Positions 41,132-54,649 are shown, counted from the first letter of the stretch. The stretch is 64,000 nt of DNA from Methanobacteriota archaeon (GCA_963719035.1 CAVRAO010000002.1:608001-672000); one strand, 5' to 3'. Made by a program: numbers and translations. The notes: generated by a model from the sequence alone, not told the origin.

Positions 41132-41914
41132 TTACGCCTTCAAATAATCCGCGGCATATATATCTTTGTTTAGCAGCACGTCGCACGTTTTTATCGTGTC
41201 TATTAAGTCTCTGTCCTCTGTGTTTATTATTGCTGATGAAAGACCGGCGCCAATAAGCATGGCTAAAAACGTTCTTTCTATAAGCCGCGGTTTCTTGGTG
41301 TCGTGCGAGATGTTGCTGAGGCCAACGGTCGTCTTTAGCACGGACGCGGGACTGGTAAGCAGTCCAATTCGCCGCACCGCTTCAACGACTGCCGGTGCCT
41401 GATCTTGCGCTGTGCTCACCGGTAGGCACACTGGATCAACGTACAGCTTCTCGACGCCGATCCCATGCTCGCAGGCGCTTCCGACGATTATCGCCGCCCG
41501 TTCTACTCGCTTGTCTACGTCGCCAAGGATGAATTTCTCGTCCATCGTCATGCAAATAATCTCTGAATCGTATTCTGCAGCAAGTGGAAAAAGCGTCGTC
41601 ATCTTCTCCTGTTCAGCGGAGATCGAATTGATCATAGATCTTCCTTTAACCTCGCTAATGCCTGCTTTCATCACATCGAGTTTCGGAGTATCGACCGAAA
41701 GCGTAACATCGACCACATCTTGCACTGTCGTCACTAGCCATTTCATTAGCTCAACTGCGTCGCTTTTGCCAAGCCCAACGTTAAGGTCAATGATTTGTGC
41801 CCCCACGTCGACTTGGCGAATTGCTAGATCCTGAACGGCTTTTGTGTCTCGTCTATCGATGATGGCCCCCACAGTTTTTGAGTAGCCGTTGATGTTGCCA
41901 CCAATAATTATCAT
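41132..41914 (-). CDS. acsE: Methyl-pterin:corrinoid/FeS protein methyltransferase AcsE
   Basis: MIIIGGNING, IIDLNVG, LSVDT, MINS, LYVDP, GLSNIS pterin-binding TIM barrel. Probable start is ATG 41914; the ORF-track extension is antisense to acsV. Confidence 0.9.
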   Translation of the reverse strand: MIIIGGNINGYSKTVGAIIDRRDTKAVQDLAIRQVDVGAQIIDLNVGLGKSDAVELMKWLVTTVQDVVDVTLSVDTPKLDVMKAGISEVKGRSMINSISAEQEKMTTLFPLAAEYDSEIICMTMDEKFILGDVDKRVERAAIIVGSACEHGIGVEKLYVDPVCLPVSTAQDQAPAVVEAVRRIGLLTSPASVLKTTVGLSNISHDTKKPRLIERTFLAMLIGAGLSSAIINTEDRDLIDTIKTCDVLLNKDIYAADYLKA

Positions 41915-42071
41915 GGGTATCCCTGCTGCTCCAGCGCAAGTGATTAAATGTGTGTTACACATTAACGCTTTCGGATGAGCGCGTACGAAGCTAGCCTTCT
42001 CGCAACCTATATATAAAAACATAGTATATAACGACACGTCTTTTGAACATATGTGAGGCTTTTGGGGCAAT

Positions 42072-43943
42072 TTGAAGAAAGAATTCAAGGTTGTTTTTAA
42101 ACCTGATAACAAAACCGTCAAGGTTGAAAGCGGAACTACCGTACTTGATGCAGCCACGAGCTCTGACATCTATATCGACAGCATCTGCGGAGGGCGGGGC
42201 AAATGCGGTAAGTGCAAGGTCCTCATCGACGGAAACGTCCAGAGCGACGAAACTGACCTCCTAACTGCTGAAGAAAAAGCGCACGGCTATTTTTTAGCAT
42301 GTTTAGCGCGAGTCACTGGCAATTTAAAAGTGACCGTACCGAAAGAAAGCAGAGTGGAGTCACATCAAATACTGATGAAAAGCGTGATCGCGCCCTTGCC
42401 AGCGATTGCTCCGCCGGTGCTGAAGGTACCGCTTTCCCTCACTCCCCCGTCATTGGCCGATTACGTGAGCGACCTCGACAGAGTGACGCACGCGCTGCGC
42501 AATCACGATATGGGGCACGTCACGATCGGACTGCCGACCTTAAAGAAGTTAAGCAAGGTACTCCGAGACAACCAGTGGAACGTCAACGTGACGCTGATGG
42601 ATCTCTGGGACAGAAAAGAGATTATCGACATCGGCCCGCCCTCAGACAACGATCTAATCGGGATCGCGGTGGACATAGGCACTACGACGATCGTCGTCGA
42701 GTTAGTGGATTTGACCTCTGGCAAGGTGATTGACGCGCGATCCGACTATAACAAGCAAGTCGTTTACGGCGAGGATGTCCTTTCACGAGTGATGTACACA
42801 GAGGAGCACGAAGATGGCCTCCAGAAGCTAACGAGCACAATTAGATACGGTATCAACGACCTCATACGAGAGCTCGTCATCGAAAATAACATGCGATACG
42901 AAAAGATTTGCCGCGCAGTCCTTTCAGGTAATACCGTTATGATGCACCTTTTTTATGGGTTGGATCCCAAGTACATACGCCACGAGCCGTATATCCCAGT
43001 GATGTCCTTCGTTCCCCAGATGAAGGCAGTTAAGCTCGGGCTGAGCGTCAACCCAAACGCGTATATCTATGCGCTTCCGTGCCGAAGCAGCTACGTCGGT
43101 GGCGACGTCACAGCTGATGTCATTGCGTCAGGAATGAACGACAATAAGGACGTGTCACTGCTAATCGACGTCGGCACCAACGGCGAGGTCGTGCTAGGAA
43201 ATAATTCTTTCCTCGTGTCGTGCTCTTGTTCAGCGGGTCCGGCCTTTGAAGGCGGGGAAGTGGAGTTCGGCGTACGCGCGATGAACGGCGCAATTGAGCG
43301 CGTGTGGATCAACAACGGCCTAGTAGAGTACTCGACCATTGGCAACGCAAAGGCAAAGGGCATTTGTGGATCCGGCCTTATCGAACTCATCGCAGAGCTT
43401 TTCAGTAACGGCGTAATTGACCGAACGGGGAAAATTCAGCTGGACAATAACAGCGTCAGGACTGAGATCGGAAGCAACGGCAACCAGTTCGTTGTGGCTT
43501 TCAAAGAAGATACAGCCATCGATAAAAACATAGTGATGACCGATGTAGATATTCAGAATATATTACGAACGAAGGCCGCTGTCTACGCGAGCTGTAGCGT
43601 GCTGCTCAAAACGTTTAGCTACCAATTTAGTGACCTTAGCAACGTCTTCATCGCGGGGAGTTTCGGCAACTACCTCGACGTGAAGAAAGCAATAACGATT
43701 GGATTGCTGCCTGATCTTTCGCTTGATAAGTTTAAGTTTATCGGCAATGGGGCCCTTGGCGGGGCACGAATGGTTTTACTGTCACGAGATCTGCAAGACA
43801 AAGCGGCAGAAATTGTTGAAAATATGACACACATCGAGTTGAGCGTCAGCAGCATGTTCTTTAAAGAGTTTACCTCATCATTGTTCATTCCTCACACGGA
43901 ACTTGATCAGTTTCCCCACGTTTCCAAACGAGGTTATACTTAA
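42072..43943 (+). CDS. acsV: Corrinoid reductive activator (RACo/AcsV; [2Fe-2S] + ASKHA ATPase)
   Basis: CGGRGKCGKC...LAC, DIGTTT, YGEDVLSR, DVGTNGE, AGPAFEG, GICGSG. Confidence 0.92.
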   Translation: MKKEFKVVFKPDNKTVKVESGTTVLDAATSSDIYIDSICGGRGKCGKCKVLIDGNVQSDETDLLTAEEKAHGYFLACLARVTGNLKVTVPKESRVESHQILMKSVIAPLPAIAPPVLKVPLSLTPPSLADYVSDLDRVTHALRNHDMGHVTIGLPTLKKLSKVLRDNQWNVNVTLMDLWDRKEIIDIGPPSDNDLIGIAVDIGTTTIVVELVDLTSGKVIDARSDYNKQVVYGEDVLSRVMYTEEHEDGLQKLTSTIRYGINDLIRELVIENNMRYEKICRAVLSGNTVMMHLFYGLDPKYIRHEPYIPVMSFVPQMKAVKLGLSVNPNAYIYALPCRSSYVGGDVTADVIASGMNDNKDVSLLIDVGTNGEVVLGNNSFLVSCSCSAGPAFEGGEVEFGVRAMNGAIERVWINNGLVEYSTIGNAKAKGICGSGLIELIAELFSNGVIDRTGKIQLDNNSVRTEIGSNGNQFVVAFKEDTAIDKNIVMTDVDIQNILRTKAAVYASCSVLLKTFSYQFSDLSNVFIAGSFGNYLDVKKAITIGLLPDLSLDKFKFIGNGALGGARMVLLSRDLQDKAAEIVENMTHIELSVSSMFFKEFTSSLFIPHTELDQFPHVSKRGYT

Positions 43944-44111
43944 AGGCTCAAGTGCAGTCAGGTTATTATTTACCCTGTTTCTAGCAGTAATCCTGTAGAC
44001 GGAAGACTTGTGAGAGTGCGTTTCTGCTTCTGAGCTGTAACGAGGGCGTGCAATTTTAAGTAGCATAGCAGAGTAATTTTAGGTAGTGGAGCGTACAGTA
44101 CGGAAAACAGC

Positions 44112-44858
44112 ATGCAAACCATTGCTATAACAGGTAAAGGCGGAACGGGCAAGACGACTTTTGCCTCTCTCCTTGTAAAACATCTTAGCGCCGATAACAA
44201 AGCCATTTTGGCAGTTGATGCAGATCCCAACTCAAACTTAGACATGCGACTGGGACTTCGCGTACAGCAGACGATTGGCGACTTGCGAGAGGATCTACTC
44301 AAAGAGTCGTTTCCTGCTGGAATTGCCAAAAATGAGCTTATCGAGTACCAAATACGACTAGCCCTCGTTGAAGGGGATACGTTCGACCTTATCGCCATGG
44401 GACGGCCCGAAGGACCCGGATGCTACTGCTATATCAACAACGTGTTGCGGGATGTCCTGGACAAACTCTCCGTCAATTACGACTACGTCGTCATTGACAA
44501 CGAAGCGGGTATGGAACACCTTTCTAGACGGACAACGAGAAACGTTGACGTATTGTTCATTATCAGCGACGTCACTGCGCTAGGTATCACCACCGCGAGT
44601 CGGATCAAAAGGCTTTCCGAGGATCTCAATCTCGTCGTAGGAAAAACTTTTTTGGTGCTGAATGAAGTGAAAAACAACGTGCCCGATAGCATCAGAAGTC
44701 AGATCCAGCAACAACAACTAGAGCTCATCGGGACCATTCCGACAGATGCCTTAATTGAAGAGTATGCGTTGGAAGGAAAGTCTTTTTTTGAGTTGCCGAA
44801 TAATTCGGCTGCGCTTAAAGCAGTTCGCGAAATCGCAGAGCGCTCTATAGCACCTTAA
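44112..44858 (+). CDS. cooC: CODH/ACS nickel-insertion ATPase CooC/AcsF
   Basis: GKGGTGKTT, VDADPN, GPGCYC, IDNEAGMEHLSR. Confidence 0.93.
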   Translation: MQTIAITGKGGTGKTTFASLLVKHLSADNKAILAVDADPNSNLDMRLGLRVQQTIGDLREDLLKESFPAGIAKNELIEYQIRLALVEGDTFDLIAMGRPEGPGCYCYINNVLRDVLDKLSVNYDYVVIDNEAGMEHLSRRTTRNVDVLFIISDVTALGITTASRIKRLSEDLNLVVGKTFLVLNEVKNNVPDSIRSQIQQQQLELIGTIPTDALIEEYALEGKSFFELPNNSAALKAVREIAERSIAP

Positions 44859-44867
44859 GTAAGTTCG

Positions 44868-46202
44868 CTATCCATTGGCCAGCTCCTTCAAATATTTCGG
44901 AAGAGCCGATGAGTCCTTTACACCAACGATTACTTCCCAGCCCGTGAGCTCCTCTAATTTCATTTTCAGCATCGCGATCATGCCGGGAATTATAAGCTTT
45001 CGGTGATCGACCTTATCTGCAATCTTGTACTCCGTTAGGGTCTGTGCGATTTTCTCTGGTGTAAACTTATCAGCGGCGAATGCCGTCATCACTGATAATC
45101 CTTCGGTATCTACCACGAGAAGGTGTGCAGGAACCTTGCTCGCCTCAATATCACTTGCCACGGTAAAATATGTTAAGGAAAAGTTAGACGTGACGATAAC
45201 CGGCGAGTTACGACTTGGTTTTCCTATTTCATAGAGGCCTGGGTTGACCTGTATGAGCGCTTGGGGATCTGTAAATATGTTGGTTCTTAATGTGGTCAGT
45301 GGGTATAGCCGCGCGGGATCGAGGTCACTGAAAAGTATTAACGAGGCATATTTCAGCGTTCCTATCGCCGCTCTAATCGCTTGAGTTTCAACATCCGCGC
45401 CGTTATCCAAGTTTATCATAACAGGGAAACCTAGCGGCCGGAAAAGCTTCTTGACGCTCAGTCGACGCAAGATGGTCAACCATTCCAGTGTCTGGCGTAA
45501 GGGCTTAGCACCGAGGTTTAAATCTAAAACGATATCCTCTAAGCCCTCGCTTTTTGCTACTTCCGACAGTGACACGAGCTCATCGATGTCATCTGCATAA
45601 AGCGCGAGTGGGCACGCGTACTGCTTTGCAAGCTTTGCCATTGATGCACAGTTGTTAGTACTGCCCGCGTAGATTAACGGTTTAGCCTTCGATACAACCT
45701 TGAGTCCCGCTTCAACGACTTCAGGATTATCGCTCATCAAAACTAGCGGTAATCCACTGTTGTCGTTCACGAGCGTCACCGCATCAGAGAAACGCTGCGC
45801 GCCCCCTTTCGCTTTGACCCCGATCAAGTCAACTCCTGAGACAATGCCAATGCGCTCGTATTTCATCGCGTCAAGCTTCTTGGCCCTTTCAACAACGCTG
45901 TGGTCGTCGAGGTCGTCTTCGATTATGAGCGCATATGCCGTCTGGTTGAAGAACGTCTTTTCGTGTCTGAAAAGCTCTGTTTCACCTCCGATCTCTAAAT
46001 CGCCGACTTTCACGGTGCGCATAGGCGGCGAAGCGGAGCTCTCTAGTTGTTGGACCACATCAGGTGCCACATATGGACACTTCGTGAGTTCTGCCTGTTT
46101 GTTAGCCAACATCATAGCAAACGCTAAGCATGTAGGTACCCCGCATTCGCCACAATTCTTTTTGGGCAACAGTTTGAATATATCAAGAGCTGTCATCGGC
46201 AT
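44868..46202 (-). CDS. acsC: Corrinoid/FeS protein large subunit (gamma)
   Basis: LPKKNCGECGVPTCLAFA...CP, GGETELFRHEK, NFSLTYF, DTEGLSV. 444 aa. Confidence 0.95.
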   Translation of the reverse strand: MPMTALDIFKLLPKKNCGECGVPTCLAFAMMLANKQAELTKCPYVAPDVVQQLESSASPPMRTVKVGDLEIGGETELFRHEKTFFNQTAYALIIEDDLDDHSVVERAKKLDAMKYERIGIVSGVDLIGVKAKGGAQRFSDAVTLVNDNSGLPLVLMSDNPEVVEAGLKVVSKAKPLIYAGSTNNCASMAKLAKQYACPLALYADDIDELVSLSEVAKSEGLEDIVLDLNLGAKPLRQTLEWLTILRRLSVKKLFRPLGFPVMINLDNGADVETQAIRAAIGTLKYASLILFSDLDPARLYPLTTLRTNIFTDPQALIQVNPGLYEIGKPSRNSPVIVTSNFSLTYFTVASDIEASKVPAHLLVVDTEGLSVMTAFAADKFTPEKIAQTLTEYKIADKVDHRKLIIPGMIAMLKMKLEELTGWEVIVGVKDSSALPKYLKELANG

Positions 46203-46205
46203 GGT

Positions 46206-47153
46206 CTATCCCACCAATTCATCGACAACTCTTCTTATGATCGCTACAGACTTCGGGTGCCGGAGTATCAACGCGTTAGCACCTGCCATCAAAGCTGCAA
46301 GCGCAGTGCCGACTTCCCAAAAGACCGCCCTATCTCTCTCGTCACCGAGATTGGCATCTACGCGATATGCTTCCTTCGCGCTCCACGCAACACTAATATC
46401 AGCGATCATCGGAGATTGGAGCATTTTGTCTCCAACGAGGCCGGCGAGTTTAATTCGCTCCATCGCTGAATAAGCGTACTCCATCCCAAAGCCAACCCCT
46501 GCCATAAGCGGGTCACTGACGATATGGTCTGGCAGTACGCCAAACTCTGTGAGCATAATGTTGAGCTGCTTAGCGATATTCACGTCAATGTTAGAGAACG
46601 CGACGACCACGTGGTCGTTAGCAGTGGCAGCAACGGCTATGGACTTATAACCATCCTGTTCTGCACGCGCGAGCAAACACTGTTCTCCTTTCGCAGCTTC
46701 ACCGCAAAGCTCGAAAACGCGGGAGTCCTTCTCGTAATCGCCGCTTCCTTGAATGATCAGCGGAGCTTTCACCTGCTTAAGCACCGTTGATACGAGCGAT
46801 GCCGCATCCTCAGCGCTGATGTTTTCCTCTTCTGGATTCGTGCTCAGCAGCTTCAGGCAGACGAAGTCTGCGCCATATATCTTAACGCACGCGTCCGCCC
46901 ATGCGACGGGATCTCTTATGACATCGCCAACGTCATCGATAATGAGCTGAGGGTAGTCTTCACCAAGGTGATCGATCACCTCCATACCGATAGCAGGTCG
47001 CGAAACTGCGCCCTCGAACGCCAAAAACGGAAGGGTCGTCTCTCCGCCCAAAAGCAGTTTCCTGTCCCTTGTTCCCCCTTCGTCATCTGTTGCGCCAAAC
47101 GCGACCTCTTTTATCTTTCCGCTCCAACTCTCCTTCGGAATTGCCACCATCAC
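46206..47153 (-). CDS. acsD: Corrinoid/FeS protein small subunit (delta)
   Basis: GGETTLPFL.FEG, DVNIAKQLN, GMEYAYSAMERIKLAGL.GDKMLQSP. 315 aa. Confidence 0.95.
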   Translation of the reverse strand: MMVAIPKESWSGKIKEVAFGATDDEGGTRDRKLLLGGETTLPFLAFEGAVSRPAIGMEVIDHLGEDYPQLIIDDVGDVIRDPVAWADACVKIYGADFVCLKLLSTNPEEENISAEDAASLVSTVLKQVKAPLIIQGSGDYEKDSRVFELCGEAAKGEQCLLARAEQDGYKSIAVAATANDHVVVAFSNIDVNIAKQLNIMLTEFGVLPDHIVSDPLMAGVGFGMEYAYSAMERIKLAGLVGDKMLQSPMIADISVAWSAKEAYRVDANLGDERDRAVFWEVGTALAALMAGANALILRHPKSVAIIRRVVDELVG

Positions 47154-47183
47154 AGTTACCCCAAAAGTTACGCACGACCACGT

Positions 47184-50100
47184 TCAGAACATACCCATTG
47201 GAGGCATATGCAGCGCAGGGTGGTCGACCTTTGCCAAGTACTCCGCTAATTCATCCGCATCCGTCGTAATAGTTTCGTCAGCAATCTTGTCTACTAAGTC
47301 CGGCAAGTCGAGTTCCTGTGCTCGCTTCTTAAGGTCTTCTCGCATCGCTTCTTTGAGCTCTTTCGGCATCCAAACGACGCGCGCTAACCCTCCGTCCGCA
47401 CGGATAAATTTCTTACTCGTGATGAACTGCCTGCCGACGCCGATGAACCCGGGGGTTTGGTTACCTCCGCCTACAGAGCCCGCAAGCGTTGAGAACTTCA
47501 TACCGATAGGGGTCATACCTGTATATTCACGATTGACCACTATCACGCCCTGTAGGTCGCTGCTGATCGCAACGATGCACTCAAAGCATCCGCACGACGT
47601 CTGCGGATCCTCCATCATCGTGTATTGATTCATCCGATCGATGTGGCCATGGGTGAGCTCTTGGACCGTTTTATTTACATTTGACCACTGGCCCTTTTGC
47701 TCGTCAATCACAGCGCCCTTCTCAACCGGCTGATTTGGTCCGTTTGGATCGATGCTGAATCCCGCAGCCGCATCGAGCCAGTTTAGTGCGCCGCACAGCC
47801 CCAAGCGTTCAGGAGAGATAATACAGACATGACTCGGGGCGAAGCTCTGACATAGTGTACACGCGTAAAACGTATCAACGCTCTCGTCTGTTAGCCCTTC
47901 AATACGCCGATCCCGCTCTGCATACGATTCCATAGCCTCAGGCAGGTGTTTTTCCACCTCCTTTTCGTCAGTGATGATGGTGACTTGTATCCGGCTGATG
48001 ATACCGCCGAGCTCCTCCTTCATCTTATTATAAAGGATGTCACCGAAGTGCTTGAATCGTAACCCATTGGCCACACTATTCTTGCTCAGACGAACCCAAA
48101 GCAAGTTTCTCTGACCCGTATGCCACGCGCCCTCTGCGTAATTGATGAACTGGTGGATGCGTCGTTCGACGACGGGCTCAAACTCCTTTTTCATATGCTT
48201 TCCGTACACTTCAACAAGCATCCCAAGCGGTGACACACTGCCCTCTTCCATCTCATCGACATCCTTCCCGATGAGCGTGATCTCGCCGTCCTTAACCGCG
48301 TCTGCATCGCGGATCTTCACGAGCTCAAACACCTTTGTCTTGGTTGGACCGCCGCACTCGACGTAGGTCTGGGGCTTGCGCACCGTTTCTCCCTCGAAGG
48401 CAAGCCCGTAAGCGACCGGTAACGAGACCTCGCCGACCGTGACCTGCATGTCCCGCATCTCGATTGCGTGCGCGACGATCTGATTGTAATCCGTCTCCAC
48501 CTCGTACTTGCCCGGCACTTCCTCCACATCTTGATCGGTGATCGTCGGTGAGCCATTGAACAGCACCGCGAACTCAATAGCTGCCTTAATGTCGTCGATA
48601 GGACCTAGTTGGACGACGACGACTTTCGGACGCTTTGCAAGGTACTCAAAGAGCCCTGTTCGATCTCCCGGCTTGACGTTCCCGAACGTCAGCGCCGCGC
48701 GGATCGCAAAGCTCAGCCCGTGAATCGCTTGCGTGAATTCGCCCACGCAAAACAGCAGCCGGTCAAGTCCCTTATGCTCGCCTATCTCGATGCCTGCCTC
48801 GGCAATCTGCTGGATGGTGTCAAATGTGGGAATTACGAGCATGCCCTTACTCTGGCAGTCCCTGATGATCTTTGCTAGTAGTTTAGGGTCCTTCGCCTTT
48901 CCTACCAACACTAAGACCCCAGGTATGGTATCATCAACGAATGAGATGCCTAACCTCCGGAGCACTTCGTCGGCAATGAACCCGGTGTATGGGGTATCCG
49001 CATACGGGTCAGGATTGTCGATGTACTTGAGGGCCTCAACGATTTCTGCAGCGACCATAGTCGCTTCTCCTGAGGCCACAGCGTTGTCAAACGTGTACTC
49101 CTCTCTAATCTTGCCCCTCACTTCTCCAAGAAGTCGCGGCAACTGCGCGAGTTTCGTCACTCTTTCGCCTGTCCACGCGGTGATGCATGGAAGATAGTAC
49201 CCGGTGCTTGGGTATCCAATCTCCTTATCACGCCCGTGTTGACGTATCGCCTTATTGAGGAGCTGATCTGCGTATCCAGTCGCGATAATGGCCCCGTCGA
49301 TCGCTTTCTTGTAGAGGGTTTCATTTTGTATTGCAGGTTTGCTTACGTCCGGTGTGGTACCCTTGTCGATCGCTTTCTTGTAGAGGGTTTCATTTTGTAT
49401 TGCAGGTTTGCTTACGTCCGGTGTAGTACCATTCCAATACGTGACCCCGCCGTCGAGTTCGCTGTGCGCGTTCATCTTCCATCTGCGGTATTGAATGGTG
49501 TTCACTAACGTTTTCGCCGCGATCGAAGGATTAGGTTCAAATATGAAGTGCCCGCCATACACGTCCTTTGCAGTCGCCTGGGCCACCTCATCAGCAAGAG
49601 GGCTTCCCTTAATGAACGGGTAAACCCCGACATGCGTGGGCCACCCCGTTGCAACGCACCACGTTCCAATCGCCACTGCTTTTTCGCTCATCGCTTCTGG
49701 AGCGCTCGCGACGATGGGAAGGTCCTGTATATCGACATCCATTACCTGAGCAAGTTCGCTCACGAAATTTTCGACGCGCGAATTGTCCACACATGACCCC
49801 ATATGAAGCACAAGCGGCAAGGACTCGCCAATGGTCTTTTCGCCGACATCTTTGAGGAACGCCTTAAGCGACTCACCCGCGTGCTCCTCGACTGCTTCTG
49901 GCGCCAACAAACCGTGCTTCGCAAGCGATTGCGCCGCACAACCGGTTACAAGCGTTAGTATGTTATTTCTGACGAGCTCTTTGGCGATCGTCAAATGGCA
50001 AAGGTCGTGTTCAGCCTTAGCGGGATTGTTGCACCCAGCGATAAGGGCGATGCCCTGAACCTCTCCGCTGCGAATCTTATCAGCGAGATACTGGAGCGGT

Positions 50101-51386
50101 TCATTTTCGTTAAAGGTGCTTAACAACGATTTTATGTACTCGAGGCTAAATCCTGCGACGACCTTGCTCGAAATGTTAGGGATAGAGATTTTTGTGGGAT
50201 CCCTGTTCTTGTACGCTTCAATAGCAACGTTCACGATCTCTTTAGCACCTTCACGCGCCGCTGCTTCGTTGAATTCGATGTGCGTATCGCCAGGGATACG
50301 GGTAATCGGCATTGTCGATATCAGCTTCGTGTGGAAACACTGTGTCCAGAACCCAACCGATGGCGCAATGCATTGATAATCAATGACCATCGCGTCGATG
50401 ACGCCTGTCATTATTGCTAACTCTTGGCTCGCGAAATTGGTGACGATCGGGATCCCTCTTCGCATGAGCAGTTCGTTGGCAGTGCAACAAATACCGACGA
50501 TATTAATTCCCTTAGCTCCTGCGGCAATTGCACTGTCTTTTAGCTCATCGGCAGCGTCGCAAATCACTTCGCCAAGAATAGGATTATGTCCATGTACGCA
50601 GAGGTTGATGTGGTCCTCTTTCAGCGCGCCGAGATTGGCCTGGGACACTACCATTTGCGGAACGCCGAACAAGACGTCTGAAAGGTTAGAGCTGATGTTC
50701 TCTCCAGTCACGTCACCGAGCGAGCATTTGATGCCCCCGAAAATCAACGGTACGGGATCTGCATCACATCCCATATGGGTCCTGTGCATGACTTCGGTGA
50801 TACCCTTGTCAATGTTGGTCGCAATGACGTCATTTCGCTCCAAGAGTTCTAGCCTCTTTGCGGGGAGCATAATTTTGAGCCAGGTACAGGCTTCGTCCTC
50901 ATTCCTTGAGAAGTCCTCCAAAGCTGAATTCGCTACAGCCACGGCAAGCTCATTTACGTTCTTATTTTTCTCCAAACCGAGCTTTGCAGCAAGGGACCGT
51001 AATTTCGCCTCATCTTTAACGCGATAGTCGGGTGCCTTGCCTTCGCCGACGCCTTTTAGGGCATGCGCAAGATGCCTTCCGTGATCAGAGTGAGCAGCAC
51101 AGCCGCCTGCCATCATTCGGATCAGGTTTCGCGCTACAATAGTGTAATCTTTAGCCCCACAGATGCCTCTTTGCGGCTCTTTGCCAAAAGGATTGATCCG
51201 ACAAGGTCCCTGCAAGCAGATCCGACAGCATAGGCCTGACTCGCCAAATCCGCACTGCGGCTGCATCGAGTCTGCCCTGTCCCACATCGTCTTCATGTTA
51301 TTCTGCTCGGCAAGCGGCATCATCGCGAGTGCCGCAGGATCCACGGTCATCGATTTTGGATTCGTTTTGTTACGTCTCTTGTCCAT
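47184..51386 (-). CDS. acsA-acsB: Fused CooS/AcsA-type Ni-CO dehydrogenase + AcsB acetyl-CoA synthase (1400 aa)
   Basis: N-half has CGFG...CCRICLQGPC...ICG (D/B clusters) and C-cluster ligands HGHN, GICCT, DYQC, AGCN, TGC, GSCVD plus MSEKA. C-half has the GYP.TGYYLP N-domain, CTLCQSF..HVC...GLCG and TSCGCFE (A-cluster). One open frame. Confidence 0.93.
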   Translation of the reverse strand: MDKRRNKTNPKSMTVDPAALAMMPLAEQNNMKTMWDRADSMQPQCGFGESGLCCRICLQGPCRINPFGKEPQRGICGAKDYTIVARNLIRMMAGGCAAHSDHGRHLAHALKGVGEGKAPDYRVKDEAKLRSLAAKLGLEKNKNVNELAVAVANSALEDFSRNEDEACTWLKIMLPAKRLELLERNDVIATNIDKGITEVMHRTHMGCDADPVPLIFGGIKCSLGDVTGENISSNLSDVLFGVPQMVVSQANLGALKEDHINLCVHGHNPILGEVICDAADELKDSAIAAGAKGINIVGICCTANELLMRRGIPIVTNFASQELAIMTGVIDAMVIDYQCIAPSVGFWTQCFHTKLISTMPITRIPGDTHIEFNEAAAREGAKEIVNVAIEAYKNRDPTKISIPNISSKVVAGFSLEYIKSLLSTFNENEPLQYLADKIRSGEVQGIALIAGCNNPAKAEHDLCHLTIAKELVRNNILTLVTGCAAQSLAKHGLLAPEAVEEHAGESLKAFLKDVGEKTIGESLPLVLHMGSCVDNSRVENFVSELAQVMDVDIQDLPIVASAPEAMSEKAVAIGTWCVATGWPTHVGVYPFIKGSPLADEVAQATAKDVYGGHFIFEPNPSIAAKTLVNTIQYRRWKMNAHSELDGGVTYWNGTTPDVSKPAIQNETLYKKAIDKGTTPDVSKPAIQNETLYKKAIDGAIIATGYADQLLNKAIRQHGRDKEIGYPSTGYYLPCITAWTGERVTKLAQLPRLLGEVRGKIREEYTFDNAVASGEATMVAAEIVEALKYIDNPDPYADTPYTGFIADEVLRRLGISFVDDTIPGVLVLVGKAKDPKLLAKIIRDCQSKGMLVIPTFDTIQQIAEAGIEIGEHKGLDRLLFCVGEFTQAIHGLSFAIRAALTFGNVKPGDRTGLFEYLAKRPKVVVVQLGPIDDIKAAIEFAVLFNGSPTITDQDVEEVPGKYEVETDYNQIVAHAIEMRDMQVTVGEVSLPVAYGLAFEGETVRKPQTYVECGGPTKTKVFELVKIRDADAVKDGEITLIGKDVDEMEEGSVSPLGMLVEVYGKHMKKEFEPVVERRIHQFINYAEGAWHTGQRNLLWVRLSKNSVANGLRFKHFGDILYNKMKEELGGIISRIQVTIITDEKEVEKHLPEAMESYAERDRRIEGLTDESVDTFYACTLCQSFAPSHVCIISPERLGLCGALNWLDAAAGFSIDPNGPNQPVEKGAVIDEQKGQWSNVNKTVQELTHGHIDRMNQYTMMEDPQTSCGCFECIVAISSDLQGVIVVNREYTGMTPIGMKFSTLAGSVGGGNQTPGFIGVGRQFITSKKFIRADGGLARVVWMPKELKEAMREDLKKRAQELDLPDLVDKIADETITTDADELAEYLAKVDHPALHMPPMGMF
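49296..49430. repeat. In-frame tandem duplication (two 66-bp copies, period 69 bp, 1 mismatch) at the CODH-ACS junction
   Basis: Copies at 49296-49361 and 49365-49430 both encode GTTPDVSKPAIQNETLYKKAID. Confidence 0.95.
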
Positions 51387-51798
51387 ATATCAGTGCACCA
51401 CACTTACACGCAAGCACGCACGATAGCTCCGCCGCACCACCGCAGAGGTCGCATTTTATCGCTTCGCTCTCACGCACCTGAATCGCCCCAAAAGGACAAA
51501 CGTCAACACATTCACCGCATCCTGTGCAACGTTCATCATCAATCGTCACTACTCCATCATCACTTTTTGTAATCGCTCTCGGTTCACAAACTTCAATACA
51601 CTTCGGTCGCTTACAGTGAAGACACCTCGTCAGGTGCAATTTACCGTCTTTAACTCCGATTTTTAGCCTCGAGAGAGGGCGAGGAGACTCGCTCATTGAA
51701 CTGTTGATGTCCCCTGACGTGCTATGTCTTAGCGCGCATGCAAGCTCGCATGACTTGCATGCCATACAATTCTTCGGAATATACCTAGCTATTAGCAT
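51370..51798 (-). CDS. cooF: CooF-like 4x[4Fe-4S] ferredoxin, copy A
   Basis: CMACKSCELAC, CLHCKRPKCIEVC, CTGCGECVDVCPFG, KCDLC...C...C. Overlaps the start of the fused CODH/ACS. Confidence 0.9.
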   Translation of the reverse strand: MLIARYIPKNCMACKSCELACALRHSTSGDINSSMSESPRPLSRLKIGVKDGKLHLTRCLHCKRPKCIEVCEPRAITKSDDGVVTIDDERCTGCGECVDVCPFGAIQVRESEAIKCDLCGGAAELSCVLACKCGALIYGQET

Positions 51799-52119: not shown

Positions 52120-52240
52120 ATGCCGAACTCGCTGCGGCCACTGCAAGCTCATTTACACTCTTTTCGTTTGCAAAACGAGCTTTTCAGCGCAGGCACGTGA
52201 CATTCTCATCGTCTTTTACTATATAGTCAGGATTTGCCAA
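52120..52240 (-). pseudogene. Degenerate internal fragment of a second cooS copy
   Basis: Reads PDYIVKDDE...EKSVNELAVAAASSA, against PDYRVKDEA...NKNVNELAVAVANSA at about 50920-51040. Confidence 0.75.
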
Positions 52241-52301
52241 AGACGCACTGCGGTTGTCTTGCCGACCGTCGACAAGCGTAAGTGAATTTCATTTTTCCCG
52301 C

Positions 52302-53906
52302 TCACTGTCGTTCCCACCGCTCTTGCAGTATCCGCTCTGCCTCTTCCCGGTGTGCATCCATTACATATGGGAGCTCAGAAACCTTTGCTGCGTCTTTGGT
52401 AAGCGCCATCAAGTCTCTTCGAGAGAGAGCTCCTATGTTAAACTTCCTGCTTCCTGCCATCAGTTGCTGCAACCCAGTCTTGAACTTTTGGCAATAGGTA
52501 TAGAGCCCGATTGCGCCTAGCGGTATTGCATCAGTTTCGTGACCAAACCGTTCCTTTATCTCGTCGTAGGAGACGAATATCTCTTTCGGCGTGACTCCGT
52601 ATGTTGACACAGTCCTAGGCAAGTTCGCTTCTTCGATCCACTTCCCGATATTCTTTCCTACCATGCCGGGGATCATTAAAGCGCGGCCCATGCATACAGC
52701 CTTTACAAAGGGAGCGCCCATCGCAATTGCCTTGTATACGCCATCTTCTGTAGAGAATCCCCCTGCCATCGCGATATCGGGAACCCGCATTCCCATATCA
52801 CAGAGGGTTCTGCAAAATTGGTACGTCAATGCTTCGAGATAGAATGTCGGGATGCCCCATTCATTCATCATCGGCCACGGGCTCATCCCTGTGCCCCCTG
52901 GAGCGCCATCGATTGTAATGAGGTCAAGCTTCGCTTCTGCCCCATAGCGGAGTGCCATAGCGAGTTCCATCGACGAATATGCGCCTGTTTTAAGCGTGAT
53001 ACGTTTAAATCCAATGTCGCGCAGGCGGTCTACTTCTTCAAAAAAGGCGGCACGAGATACGAACCCAACGCGAGAATGTCGCTCGAATTGCCTAATTCCA
53101 CCGTCCTGGTATGCCCTTTCCACTGCCGGAAGAGTTGGGTCGGGCAGCACGATATACCCGCGGTCCTTAAGCTGTCGTGCCCGCTCAATGGTTTTGACTT
53201 GTATCTCGCCTCCGATGCACTTCGCTCCCTGACCCCATTTGAGTTCGATCGTTTCCAAATTGTGCTTTGAAGCTAGATACTCCGCAACCCCAAGCCGCGT
53301 ATCCTCTACGTTAATTTGGACGAGCAGCTCTCCGTATCCGTCGTGATATCTTCTATAGGTATCTATTCGGTAATCCATATCCGGCGATTTCTTGACTTTA
53401 CCCTCACTATCAAGTTCAAGCCCGGGATCCACTCCACAGACGTTCTCTCCGCAGACGATAGTAATTCCTGCGAGCGCCGCGCCCGTCGCAAAGTGTTCCC
53501 AATTATGCTTCGCAATTGTGGTAGAGCCCAATGCACCGGTGAATATGGGTACCCGCATCTTAGTCTTTTTATTATACCCATACTCCGTTTCGGTATCCAC
53601 GTTTTCAAAAAGCGCGGTGTCGGGACCCGCCTCAACACCCTCTGGTAGTCCTTCGGCGCCCACGGCATACCCCTGAATGTTTAGGTGTGAATAATCTATC
53701 GGGTAGTTTTTGTCGGCGCCGGCGGTAACTTCTCCGAACCTGGCTTGGTAAAGCACTTCTCGGCCCCTAAAGGAGGACAACCAGATTTCACAGCCGCCTT
53801 TACAACCGTCAAGGCATTCTGTACATATCCCCGACATTGGGACAACATTCTGTGCGCGGTTGAAGGTGTGCGTTACTATATTAGCGTTCGGTCTTCTCAG
53901 GTTCAT
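52302..53906 (-). CDS. FMN-binding glutamate synthase family protein (stand-alone GltB domain 2-like)
   Basis: N-terminal Cys cluster (CTECLDGCKGGC), ELKWGQGAKCIGGE, LKTG, IDGAPGGTGMSP, AGG. Confidence 0.88.
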   Translation of the reverse strand: MNLRRPNANIVTHTFNRAQNVVPMSGICTECLDGCKGGCEIWLSSFRGREVLYQARFGEVTAGADKNYPIDYSHLNIQGYAVGAEGLPEGVEAGPDTALFENVDTETEYGYNKKTKMRVPIFTGALGSTTIAKHNWEHFATGAALAGITIVCGENVCGVDPGLELDSEGKVKKSPDMDYRIDTYRRYHDGYGELLVQINVEDTRLGVAEYLASKHNLETIELKWGQGAKCIGGEIQVKTIERARQLKDRGYIVLPDPTLPAVERAYQDGGIRQFERHSRVGFVSRAAFFEEVDRLRDIGFKRITLKTGAYSSMELAMALRYGAEAKLDLITIDGAPGGTGMSPWPMMNEWGIPTFYLEALTYQFCRTLCDMGMRVPDIAMAGGFSTEDGVYKAIAMGAPFVKAVCMGRALMIPGMVGKNIGKWIEEANLPRTVSTYGVTPKEIFVSYDEIKERFGHETDAIPLGAIGLYTYCQKFKTGLQQLMAGSRKFNIGALSRRDLMALTKDAAKVSELPYVMDAHREEAERILQERWERQ

Positions 53907-54016
53907 GCCGTAATCGCTTCCTTTTTTTTATTTATCCGTCGTTTACACCACGGAAGATCCGTCTTTTTCGAATTTTGTTAACTCGCGTTATAGCTTTCTG
54001 GTTCGCTCGGTTACAT

Positions 54017-54502
54017 CTATTGTCCATATATCAGTGCACCACACTTACATGCAAGCACACACGATAGCTCCGCCGCACCACCGCAGAGGTCGCATTTAAC
54101 GGCTTCATGGCCGCGCGCCTGTATCGCCCCAAAGGGGCACGCCTCCACACATTCAAGACATCCAATGCAGCTTTCGTCATCAATCGTCACTACACCGTCG
54201 CCATCTTTTGTAATCGCGCTTGCTTTGCAAACCTCTATACACTTCGGGTGCTTACAGTGAACGCACGTTATAAGATGCAATTTGCCATCGTTATGAACAA
54301 TCAAGAGCCTCGAGAAAGGGCGCGGGTGCTCGCAGATTGCTGTGTTAATATCACCTGACGCGCTATGTCGCAGCGCACAGGCAAGTTCGCACGACTTGCA
54401 CGCCATACAATTCTTAGGAATAAACCTTACGAGCGAATCTATGCAAGCATCACAGCCTTCGCCGCATTGAAATTGCTCTTCGTCCCAATCAAAGCAGTTC
54501 AT
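54017..54502 (-). CDS. cooF: CooF-like ferredoxin, copy B, with a Cys-rich N-terminal extension
   Basis: Close paralog of 51370-51798 (identical PKNCMACKSCELACALRHS and KCDLCGGAAELSCVLACKCGALIYGQ). Extra MNCFDWDEEQFQCGEGCDAC. GAGGTGA RBS. Confidence 0.88.
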   Translation of the reverse strand: MNCFDWDEEQFQCGEGCDACIDSLVRFIPKNCMACKSCELACALRHSASGDINTAICEHPRPFSRLLIVHNDGKLHLITCVHCKHPKCIEVCKASAITKDGDGVVTIDDESCIGCLECVEACPFGAIQARGHEAVKCDLCGGAAELSCVLACKCGALIYGQ

Positions 54503-54649
54503 GTATTTCACCTCATCGAGCAAAGAACGAAGGTTTGAACCCTCACCGGTATATTCCGCATTTTTTTAGAATTCAGCTTCAGCAAAATCCTTGGAAATAA
54601 CACGATATTGAACGATAGGTTAAGATCGAATACCTTTTTTTATTTGGAA

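Follow-up and report, generated by a model that had tools for sequence, protein, structure and literature searches.

Carbon monoxide dehydrogenase/acetyl-CoA synthase (CODH/ACS) has been described from bacteria such as Moorella thermoacetica and Carboxydothermus hydrogenoformans, in which CODH and ACS are separate subunits of an alpha2-beta2 complex, and from Methanosarcina and other methanogens, which have the archaeal acetyl-CoA decarbonylase/synthase (ACDS) composed of CdhABCDE. Adam et al. (2018, PNAS) reportedly treated interdomain transfers of CODH/ACS in their work on the evolution of this enzyme, and that study may already cover archaeal AcsB-type complexes. The accessible text of the 2026 preprint PMC13370988 lists AcsB in Bathyarchaeota, Methanomicrobia, Methanomassiliicoccales, Thermoplasmatota and other archaea. 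A fusion of CooS and AcsB is flagged for two proteins labelled 'Euryarchaeota archaeon RBG' in Supplementary Table 1 of Inoue et al. 2019 (PMC6344411), and not in its main text as far as the available portion goes; this table remark is all that our literature search returned, and no main-text description of a CooS::AcsB fusion was found. Here we analysed a stretch of 64,000 nt (the window; GCA_963719035.1, CAVRAO010000002.1:608001-672000) that represents 608–672 kb of an 816-kb contig from a methanogen of the Bog-38/Candidatus Methanoflorens lineage; all coordinates are counted from the first nucleotide of the window. Between 41.1 and 51.9 kb it carries seven genes, cooF, cooS::acsB, acsD, acsC, cooC, acsV and acsE. 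The cluster is a member of the known, barely described fused archaeal CODH/ACS type, newly paired with a methanogen in which tetrahydromethanopterin (H4MPT) is the only carrier of the methyl branch. Archaeal AcsB and the fusion are already in print, but this pairing appears to be undescribed.

The central gene is one continuous open reading frame (ORF; 47184..51386, minus strand) that encodes 1400 amino acids (aa) without a stop, where the initial annotation of this DNA had listed CODH and ACS as two genes. Residues 15–638 match the CooS equivalog TIGR01702 with 711 bits (cut-off 478), and residues 696–1397 match the AcsB equivalog NF040764 with 951 bits (cut-off 800). The CooS half, a Ni,Fe-CODH (residues 1–640; 49467..51386, minus strand), also matches PF03063 with 518 bits. 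The ACS half (residues ~686–1400; 47184..49331, minus strand) comprises domains A1–A3 (PF18537, PF03598 and PF19436), with the A1 domain PF18537 at residues 708–789, and contains the A-cluster motifs CTLCQSFAP at residue 1176, then C...C, and SCGCFEC at residue 1264. The A-cluster cysteines are invariant across 15 fused homologues. When both halves were compared to solved structures in the PDB, the CooS half scored 680 bits against Moorella AcsA versus 45 bits against CdhA (9c0q_A), and the ACS half 781 bits against Carboxydothermus ACS versus 376 bits against CdhC of M. acetivorans (9c0s_E), the latter over A2–A3 only. These scores uphold the bacterial-type carbonyl branch proposed in the initial annotation as far as the structural type is concerned: judged from its sequence, the branch is of the AcsB/AcsE/AcsV 'bacterial' type rather than ACDS.

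The distribution of the fusion was surveyed by a word-indexed search with residues 500–900, which gave 156 proteins at E <= 0.001. Among the 120 homologue clusters listed, 110 are at least 1300 aa long, and all 110 carry CODH together with the N-terminal domain of ACS. A search of 41 genomes of relatives matched the fused gene in 17/17 genomes of the same genus and in 5/6 of the sister genus; the match to residues 1–1400 was uninterrupted in 12 of the 23 other family genomes, including four single-contig genomes. Both halves were present in 32 metagenome loci, and in 15 of these they form one frame without a stop, in every case with at least 53% identity to the window protein. Outside Bog-38 an uninterrupted CooS::AcsB was found in 12 loci, to which the same lower limit of 53% identity applies. 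In-frame stops separate the halves in 8 metagenome loci, the halves lie in different frames in 10, and these 18 unfused loci are all at most 49% identical to the window protein, except L050 and L058. This division by identity argues that the fusion marks one clade, and that in more distant kin cooS and acsB are neighbouring, separate genes.

CooS homology ends at YRRWKMN (residues 633–639) and ACS homology begins at LYKKAIDGAIIATGYA (residue 691), which leaves a joint of 51 residues. Close relatives are 1377 aa long, and their joint comprises ~28 residues with a hypervariable middle. The joint of the window protein is longer because of a private tandem duplication of 69 nt (about 49293..49430, minus strand; TRF period 69, 2.0 copies, 98% match) that repeats 23 residues (2 x 23 aa, residues 653–698). 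A contig from an independent study spanning 46900–51398 omits exactly 69 nt of this duplication, and contigs of two other runs end at 49325 and restart at 49401, which is the usual behaviour of de Bruijn contigs at repeats. We therefore read the duplication as a private length variant in a tolerant tether, which is probably real. The fusion itself is independent of it.

Length changes and insertions were also observed in other fused proteins. The Bog-38 relative L009:633-4883 has a 40-residue low-complexity TPDIT/TLDST repeat in the CooS-ACS joint, a second independent length expansion at the spot of the 23-residue duplication of the window. An intein with a homing-endonuclease domain (PF14528, PF14890) is located inside the ACS half of P0090 (1894 aa), P0205 and L046:13414-14927.

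The fused gene is followed on the minus strand by the two genes for the corrinoid iron-sulfur protein (CoFeSP). The small subunit gene acsD (46206..47153) encodes 315 aa, and its best NCBIfam model is the 313-position subfamily NF003376 (369 bits, cut-off 280). This short form is without the archaeal N-terminal extension and scores 279 bits against Moorella 4djd_D. The large subunit gene acsC (44868..46202; 444 aa, PF03599 and an FeS domain) matches PRK04165 with 527 bits (cut-off 306) and Carboxydothermus CoFeSP 2h9a_A with 389 bits. On the plus strand follow a cooC/acsF-like gene for a P-loop Ni-insertion ATPase (44112..44858; 248 aa, CbiA/AAA_31 matches), which is the sole copy found in its own genome with this query (tblastn) and keeps its cluster position in relatives, and acsV (42072..43943; 623 aa, TTG start) for RACo, the ATP-dependent reductive activator of CoFeSP. 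All four Pfam domains of AcsV (Fer2, RACo_linker, Raco_middle and RACo_C_ter) are above their cut-offs; its score against NF040756 is 630 bits, below the cut-off of 800, and this counts against the assignment. Measured between the gene starts, acsV is separated from the divergent acsE by a spacer of 157 bp (41915..42071), in which promoters for both are presumed. Upstream of the fused gene lies cooF (51370..51798, minus strand), encoding a 2x[4Fe-4S] ferredoxin with generic Fer4 family matches only. Its start is probably Met33 of the listed ORF, it overlaps the start of cooS by 17 nt, and in every Bog-38 locus it immediately precedes the fused gene. Every component named in the initial annotation (acsE, acsV, cooC, the 444-aa acsC, the 315-aa acsD, CooS, ACS with an N-domain, and cooF) was found where it had been placed.

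Twelve Bog-38 loci reach from cooF to acsE, and the order cooF, fused gene, acsD, acsC, cooC (reverse), acsV (reverse), acsE was the same in all; acsC of L015 was below the coverage filter in this gene-order comparison. In the genus of the window the cluster is situated between pheS-pheT and the A-ATPase operon, and these ATPase genes also come after the cluster in the sister genus. The GC content of the cluster (0.47–0.54) shows no anomaly compared to the remainder of the window (0.45–0.57). Metatranscriptome contigs of a 90–95% identical strain cover acsE, acsV, acsC-acsD-acsB (one contig over all three) and cooS, although such contigs cannot prove a transcript or its ends. No RNA contig was found on 51.7–56 kb or across the CooS-ACS joint, which says nothing on transcription there.

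A chimeric assembly, contamination of the bin, or a sequencing error that joins two genes could in principle create such a locus. The genome is a metagenome-assembled genome of 13 contigs, it has a duplicate contig (C5) that is 99.4% identical to part of C12, and frameshifted genes occur elsewhere in it. However, both the fused frame and the cluster were found again in four single-contig genomes with mcrA, in 23 loci from genome collections and in metagenome contigs of up to 942 kb. Short-read contigs of three independent studies cross the left edge of the cluster at 41.1 kb, and one contig spans 54.07–55.72 kb; a chimeric join at about 41.1 or 55 kb, a possibility that the initial annotation had raised, is thereby excluded. 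An artefact is thus refuted for both the cluster and the fusion, an assembly explanation remains only for the 69-nt duplication, and overall we regard an artefactual origin as extremely improbable.

The archaeal nature of the host, assumed from the beginning, is confirmed by McrA, Mer and MtrH on the same 816-kb contig and by flanks that code for archaeal-type PheT, PheS and A/V-ATPase subunit I; Ftr is encoded twice in the genome. McrA was detected in 18 of the 24 family genomes and in 5/5 high-quality ones. GTDB Bog-38 corresponds to Ca. Methanoflorens, Methanoflorentaceae or Rice Cluster II, and the lineage is the most abundant methanogen lineage of northern peatlands according to the accessible parts of two reports (10.1101/2025.08.21.671631; PMC12296737).

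In every gene survey control genomes gave the expected results. No cdhA above cut-off was found in the genome that carries the window, the best TIGR00314 match (34 bits, cut-off 781) being the CooS half itself, nor in any of the 24 family genomes, four of which are single-contig. For cdhB, no PF02552 match was obtained in the own genome, the only one searched, and the M. jannaschii and M. acetivorans controls were positive. Formyltetrahydrofolate synthetase (Fhs) and methylenetetrahydrofolate reductase (metF) were found neither in the own genome nor in any of the 24 family genomes, and FolD was not found in the own genome, the only genome searched. The own genome is 91% complete, which weakens conclusions from these absences. 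The lack of cdhA and cdhB, first noted for the window, thus extends to the whole genome and for cdhA to 24/24 family genomes. The genome survey that the initial annotation had proposed found the genes of the H4MPT branch and neither folate one-carbon (C1) enzymes nor cdhAB, in agreement with the hybrid pathway it had envisaged. By its gene content, the lineage has this cluster as its only CODH/ACS, is without an ACDS-type CODH, and possesses an H4MPT methyl branch.

The enzyme could be put to a different use, either catabolic (acetate cleavage for methanogenesis, CO oxidation) or with a methyl donor of AcsE other than CH3-H4MPT. CODH/ACS is reversible, and two otherwise near-invariant positions of AcsE are altered, as described below. 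A single-copy enzyme encoded near housekeeping genes, together with a full CO2-reduction route, nevertheless fits an anabolic role, which CODH/ACS also has in other hydrogenotrophic methanogens. In the literature, an acetoclastic potential of Ca. Methanoflorens was inferred from annotations of cdhC/D/E and acs and from transcripts (PMC12296737, accessible portion), but the family is described as consisting of obligate hydrogenotrophs in the available text of 10.1101/2025.08.21.671631. Considering these points, we find a different use unlikely and favour the anabolic role with CH3-H4MPT as donor.

A second acsB, standing alone without a CooS half, is located at G000:C12:65272-67395 (locus L034), with a near-duplicate at G000:C5:22813-24938. 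It is 91% identical to the fused protein over residues 691–1119 and has three frame changes in the own genome. Intact stand-alone acsB genes of 727 aa are present in relatives (P0122-P0125) and branch inside the Bog-38 clade, which suggests that the ACS half was duplicated within the lineage. The gene was rejected as part of another CODH/ACS set, its neighbours being unrelated (an ABC transporter, NosD-like and HEAT-repeat proteins, and a permease). Contig C5 of this genome (35969 nt) copies positions 42447-78425 of C12. The simplest explanation is a strain variant, or a duplicate from the assembly that stayed in the bin. Because of C5, gene copies in the own genome appear more numerous than they are. 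An ABC-2 membrane protein gene (L034:9789-10549, G000:C12) is split into two overlapping ORFs, which, together with the nearby frameshifted acsB, suggests indel errors in the assembly there or local gene decay.

The acsE gene (41132..41914, minus strand) encodes a probable pterin-binding methyltransferase to the corrinoid protein (PF00809, 81.8 bits). As listed, its ORF (345 aa) overlaps acsV by 98 nt. Since homology to every model and to the solved methyltransferase (MeTr) structures begins at Met86 (MIIIGGNING...) of this ORF, the start was set there, resulting in a protein of 260 aa. AcsE matches Carboxydothermus MeTr 2yci over the full length with E = 1.5e-59. The residues D75, N96, D160 and N201 (window numbering) are conserved, and we take these to be the residues that line the pterin site in enzymes of the MeTr family (MeTr, MtgA). 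Analogous pterin-site residues of MtgA are named in the accessible part of PMC7154762.

Two other positions of AcsE set the lineage apart, when groups were defined by identity to the window sequence and independently of the motif. In the GE(R/K)xN motif, Gly (Gly6) replaces Glu in 32/32 sequences of the Bog-38 clade, and 61/61 aligned others have Glu, so that the departure of GGNING from GERING, already noticed in the initial annotation, is a real signature of the lineage. At position 213, Glu is present in 32/32 sequences of the Bog-38 clade, and the others have Asn (50), Asp (10), Gly (1) or Ala (1). Gly6 and Glu213 could equally represent a compensating relocation of one carboxylate.

MtrH, a subunit of the H4MPT methyltransferase, retains the Glu of its GGQPGE motif in 26/28 sequences. 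When the profiles of AcsE and of 28 MtrH sequences were compared, the local alignment comprised the barrel core only (90.9% probability, columns 32–181). In a forced global alignment, which is of low confidence, the conserved Glu of MtrH is opposite the Glu of AcsE that was lost in Bog-38. For this reason the loss of the Glu is hardly a general mark of H4MPT use; Gly6 as a mark of H4MPT binding in general finds no support in the MtrH profile comparison.

AcsE is kept in every Bog-38 locus, AcsCD belong to the short type known from bacteria, and the searches for folate C1 enzymes were negative, so that the use of CH3-H4MPT by AcsE is the simplest reading: AcsE probably takes the methyl group from CH3-H4MPT. 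Several observations count against this inference from gene content. AcsE reaches 254 bits against PRK07535, just below the cut-off of 259, and 154 bits against NF040758, below the cut-off of 370, and the forced alignment places a Glu that MtrH conserves opposite the one that is lost. The identity of AcsE to relatives in a folate context is 46–49%, and that of AcsC, AcsD and AcsV is 44–53%; fast evolution of AcsE after a transfer was rejected, its divergence being no greater than that of the other three. With these reservations we suggest, as a possibility to which we assign somewhat less than an even chance, that AcsE became the first known methyl-H4MPT:corrinoid iron-sulfur protein methyltransferase of the MeTr family after a folate-type branch had moved between archaeal phyla, and that Glu6 to Gly and Asn213 to Glu were maybe part of the cofactor switch. 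If this were true, the dominant methanogen of northern peat would fix carbon via a fused hybrid enzyme system unlike textbook ACDS.

In order to get an idea of the origin of the cluster, we considered the relatives of the ACS half. After Bog-38, the search returned matches at 54–69% identity that are labelled Thermoplasmata, Methanomassiliicoccales, Methanobacteriota or Euryarchaeota, among them Ca. Methanomassiliicoccus, and the first bacterial labels (Bacillota, Natranaerofaba carboxydovora) followed at 50–51% identity. A quick maximum-likelihood tree of 102 rows was calculated with supports from the SH-like approximate likelihood ratio test (SH-aLRT). Six Bog-38 rows form a clade (SH-aLRT 100), and its sister (99) is a group with a Thermoplasmata-labelled row and unnamed fused proteins. 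Both belong to a clade of 26 rows (100) and to one of 41 rows (97), the organism-labelled members of the latter being archaeal. The sister of this larger clade is the Bacillota/Natranaerofaba group, and CdhC-type rows are in a separate 12-row clade. From the phylogeny that the initial annotation had called for, and that was run here for ACS, the separation from CdhC-type sequences emerged, but the labelled neighbours are archaeal, not bacterial. Without a root, the tree cannot tell whether bacteria were the ancient source of the archaeal AcsB clade as a whole.

The loci L042 and L047, whose fused gene is 54–57% identical, have exactly the gene order of Bog-38. L042 adjoins fhs, folD, an FDH-like gene, an acetyl-CoA-synthetase-like gene and a carbonic anhydrase gene. 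Other sampled genomes of the host's phylum gave CdhC-type matches (~45% identity, C-terminal domains only) and CdhA-type matches. In a complete genome of the same phylum and another family, a 686-aa ACS (G025:C1:1144328-1146277) with an A1-like domain and 45% identity to residues 720–1397 was observed, which may be the 'prismane-CdhC' type of PMC13370988.

The initial annotation had proposed an interdomain transfer, on the premise that AcsE, AcsV and a short AcsD typify bacterial clusters. This premise is out of date in view of AcsB in several archaeal groups (PMC13370988, accessible text). An acetogen-type bacterium could have given the whole cluster directly to the Bog-38 ancestor: the structural type was first described in bacteria and the best solved structures are those of Carboxydothermus and Moorella, Bacillota and Natranaerofaba are sister to the clade of the window, one close homologue bears the label '[Eubacterium]', and an approximately unbiased (AU) test does not fix the place of Bog-38 relative to other archaeal rows. 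On the other hand, bacterial-labelled rows start at 50–51% identity, compared to 54–69% for archaeal-labelled ones, and the rare fusion and the exact gene order are common to archaeal-labelled loci, more distant loci (at most 49%) being unfused. The nearest relatives outside the family are archaeal-labelled fused clusters of the same gene order, so that a direct transfer between the domains is improbable and an interdomain event is at best remote.

An AcsB-type, perhaps fused, enzyme could also be ancestral in Archaea, kept in Bog-38 and exchanged for ACDS in its relatives. In favour of this, the accessible text of PMC13370988 proposes, as one possibility, a root between bacterial and archaeal AcsB, the ancestor being prismane-bearing; it also allows for an old bacterial import. 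The CdhC/CdhA-type matches in other genomes of the phylum would, however, require many independent switches, 60–68% identity to sequences labelled as another phylum is high for such a deep split, and the clusters of the relatives are in a folate context that is absent from Bog-38. We give vertical inheritance little credence, about as little as a direct gift from a bacterium.

A transfer of the block from archaeon to archaeon, which displaced ACDS, fits better than an interdomain transfer. The archaeal labels of the nearest sequences, the tree, the gene order of L042 and L047, the folate genes at L042, and the Cdh types elsewhere in the phylum favour a single block transfer from a folate-using archaeon. 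Some observations speak against such a transfer. Most homologues are without an organism name, and several unfused rows stand among the fused rows of the tree, although P0158, whose contig is as long as that of the fused L042, looks like a difference in gene calling. P0388 (cluster of P0035, in the group nearest Bog-38) is a 1376-aa fused CooS::AcsB with the RefSeq label '[Eubacterium]...'; either a bacterium possesses the fused gene, or the assembly is mislabelled or contaminated. With p = 0.159, the AU test did not reject a tree in which Bog-38 stands apart from the 33 remaining rows of the archaeal clade, a group that was defined only once the tree had been seen. Statistical proof that Bog-38 is nested among Thermoplasmatota-labelled rows thus failed, and for this reason nesting and direction of transfer rest on the unconstrained quick tree, the shared fusion, the gene order and parsimony.

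Upstream of the cluster, an add-on of a sub-lineage (52302..54523, minus strand) codes for a 534-aa protein with a Glu_synthase-FMN domain according to Pfam (52302-53906) and for a second CooF paralogue (54017-54523) that is 77% identical to cooF. This add-on was found only in the closest relatives L010, L017 and L043 and is missing from the other Bog-38 loci. Between the add-on and cooF is the decayed remnant of a cooS 5' end from a partial duplication (52122..52271, minus strand; blastn 73% over 111 nt, tblastn E = 0.001), and a better-preserved copy (residues 37–160, 85–88% identity) is at the same place in L010 and L017. Another cooF-like gene lies on contig C8 (~432.6–437.4 kb), together with part of the gene for the 534-aa protein.

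Considering all data, we propose the following model. CooS and the three-domain AcsB would be translated as one polypeptide of ~155 kDa, connected end to end via a short hypervariable tether, and the fused protein would dimerise via its CooS halves like other Ni-CODHs. Against a single product of this size, a separate ACS may arise from an internal start, and contigs cannot prove the 155-kDa product. CooF or ferredoxin would supply electrons for the reduction of CO2 to CO at the C-cluster, and the CO would travel inside the fused protein to the A-cluster. AcsE would shift the methyl group from CH3-H4MPT, made by Fwd-Ftr-Mch-Mtd-Mer, to the cobalt of AcsCD, which would methylate the A-cluster, and acetyl-CoA would be released for biosynthesis. 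AcsV would re-reduce oxidised cobalt, and CooC would insert nickel. Acetate cleavage is possible by reversibility and is not indicated here. The block would have been acquired once, before the split of the family's two genera, and would have replaced the ancestral CdhABCDE. Its donor would have been an archaeon from the Thermoplasmatota- or Methanomassiliicoccales-labelled clade, with the same fused cluster in a folate context. We consider it fairly probable that this explanation as a whole is correct, i.e., that a hydrogenotrophic Bog-38 methanogen has a fused enzyme as its sole CODH/ACS, that this enzyme is fed by H4MPT, and that it arrived by archaeal block transfer.

These data have consequences for the view of the lineage. 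In the accessible part of PMC12296737, the Bog-38 enzyme is annotated as ordinary cdhC/D/E and used for the acetoclastic inference; it is actually a CooS::AcsB with a separate AcsE. Literature on Ca. Methanoflorens that we found holds only this annotation and the inferred acetoclastic potential, and the missing CdhA/CdhB, the fusion, AcsE and the cofactor mismatch are unmentioned there (supplements of bioRxiv preprints may contain more). Physiology models and marker-gene surveys of Bog-38 should allow for the fused enzyme. For enzymology, the protein would be a natural single-chain CODH/ACS with a short tether of strain-variable length, and the locus offers a natural experiment: does an enzyme of the MeTr family work on methanopterin instead of folate? 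If the transfer reading is true, a complete multi-subunit module displaced its analogue across archaeal phyla.

Compared to known systems, the Bog-38 cluster shares most components with the CODH/ACS of M. thermoacetica and C. hydrogenoformans: the CooS-type CODH, the three-domain ACS, AcsC, the short AcsD, a probable pterin methyltransferase, the RACo-type activator and CooC. It differs in that CODH and ACS form one polypeptide instead of separate subunits, that the host is a methanogenic archaeon with the H4MPT branch only, no folate branch of the kind that feeds bacterial MeTr having been found, and that AcsE is without the otherwise invariant Glu of GE(R/K)xN. With the ACDS of Methanosarcina and other methanogens it has in common the overall chemistry, the presumed role, the likely donor CH3-H4MPT, and homologous A2-A3 domains of ACS and CoFeSP subunits. 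In contrast to ACDS, it is without CdhA and CdhB, its ACS has an A1 domain, its AcsD is without the N-terminal extension, and AcsE and AcsV are separate proteins. The closest systems are the fused CooS-ACS proteins of uncultured Euryarchaeota/Thermoplasmatota, which likewise have a single frame of ~1360–1380 aa with 54–68% identity and, at L042 and L047, acsD, acsC, cooC, acsV and acsE in the same order. L042 is located beside fhs/folD, whereas no folate C1 enzymes were found in Bog-38. The Bog-38 host belongs to another phylum (labelled Halobacteriota) and produces methane by CO2 reduction, and its lineage is further distinguished by Gly6 and Glu213 of AcsE and by the extra stand-alone acsB paralogue.

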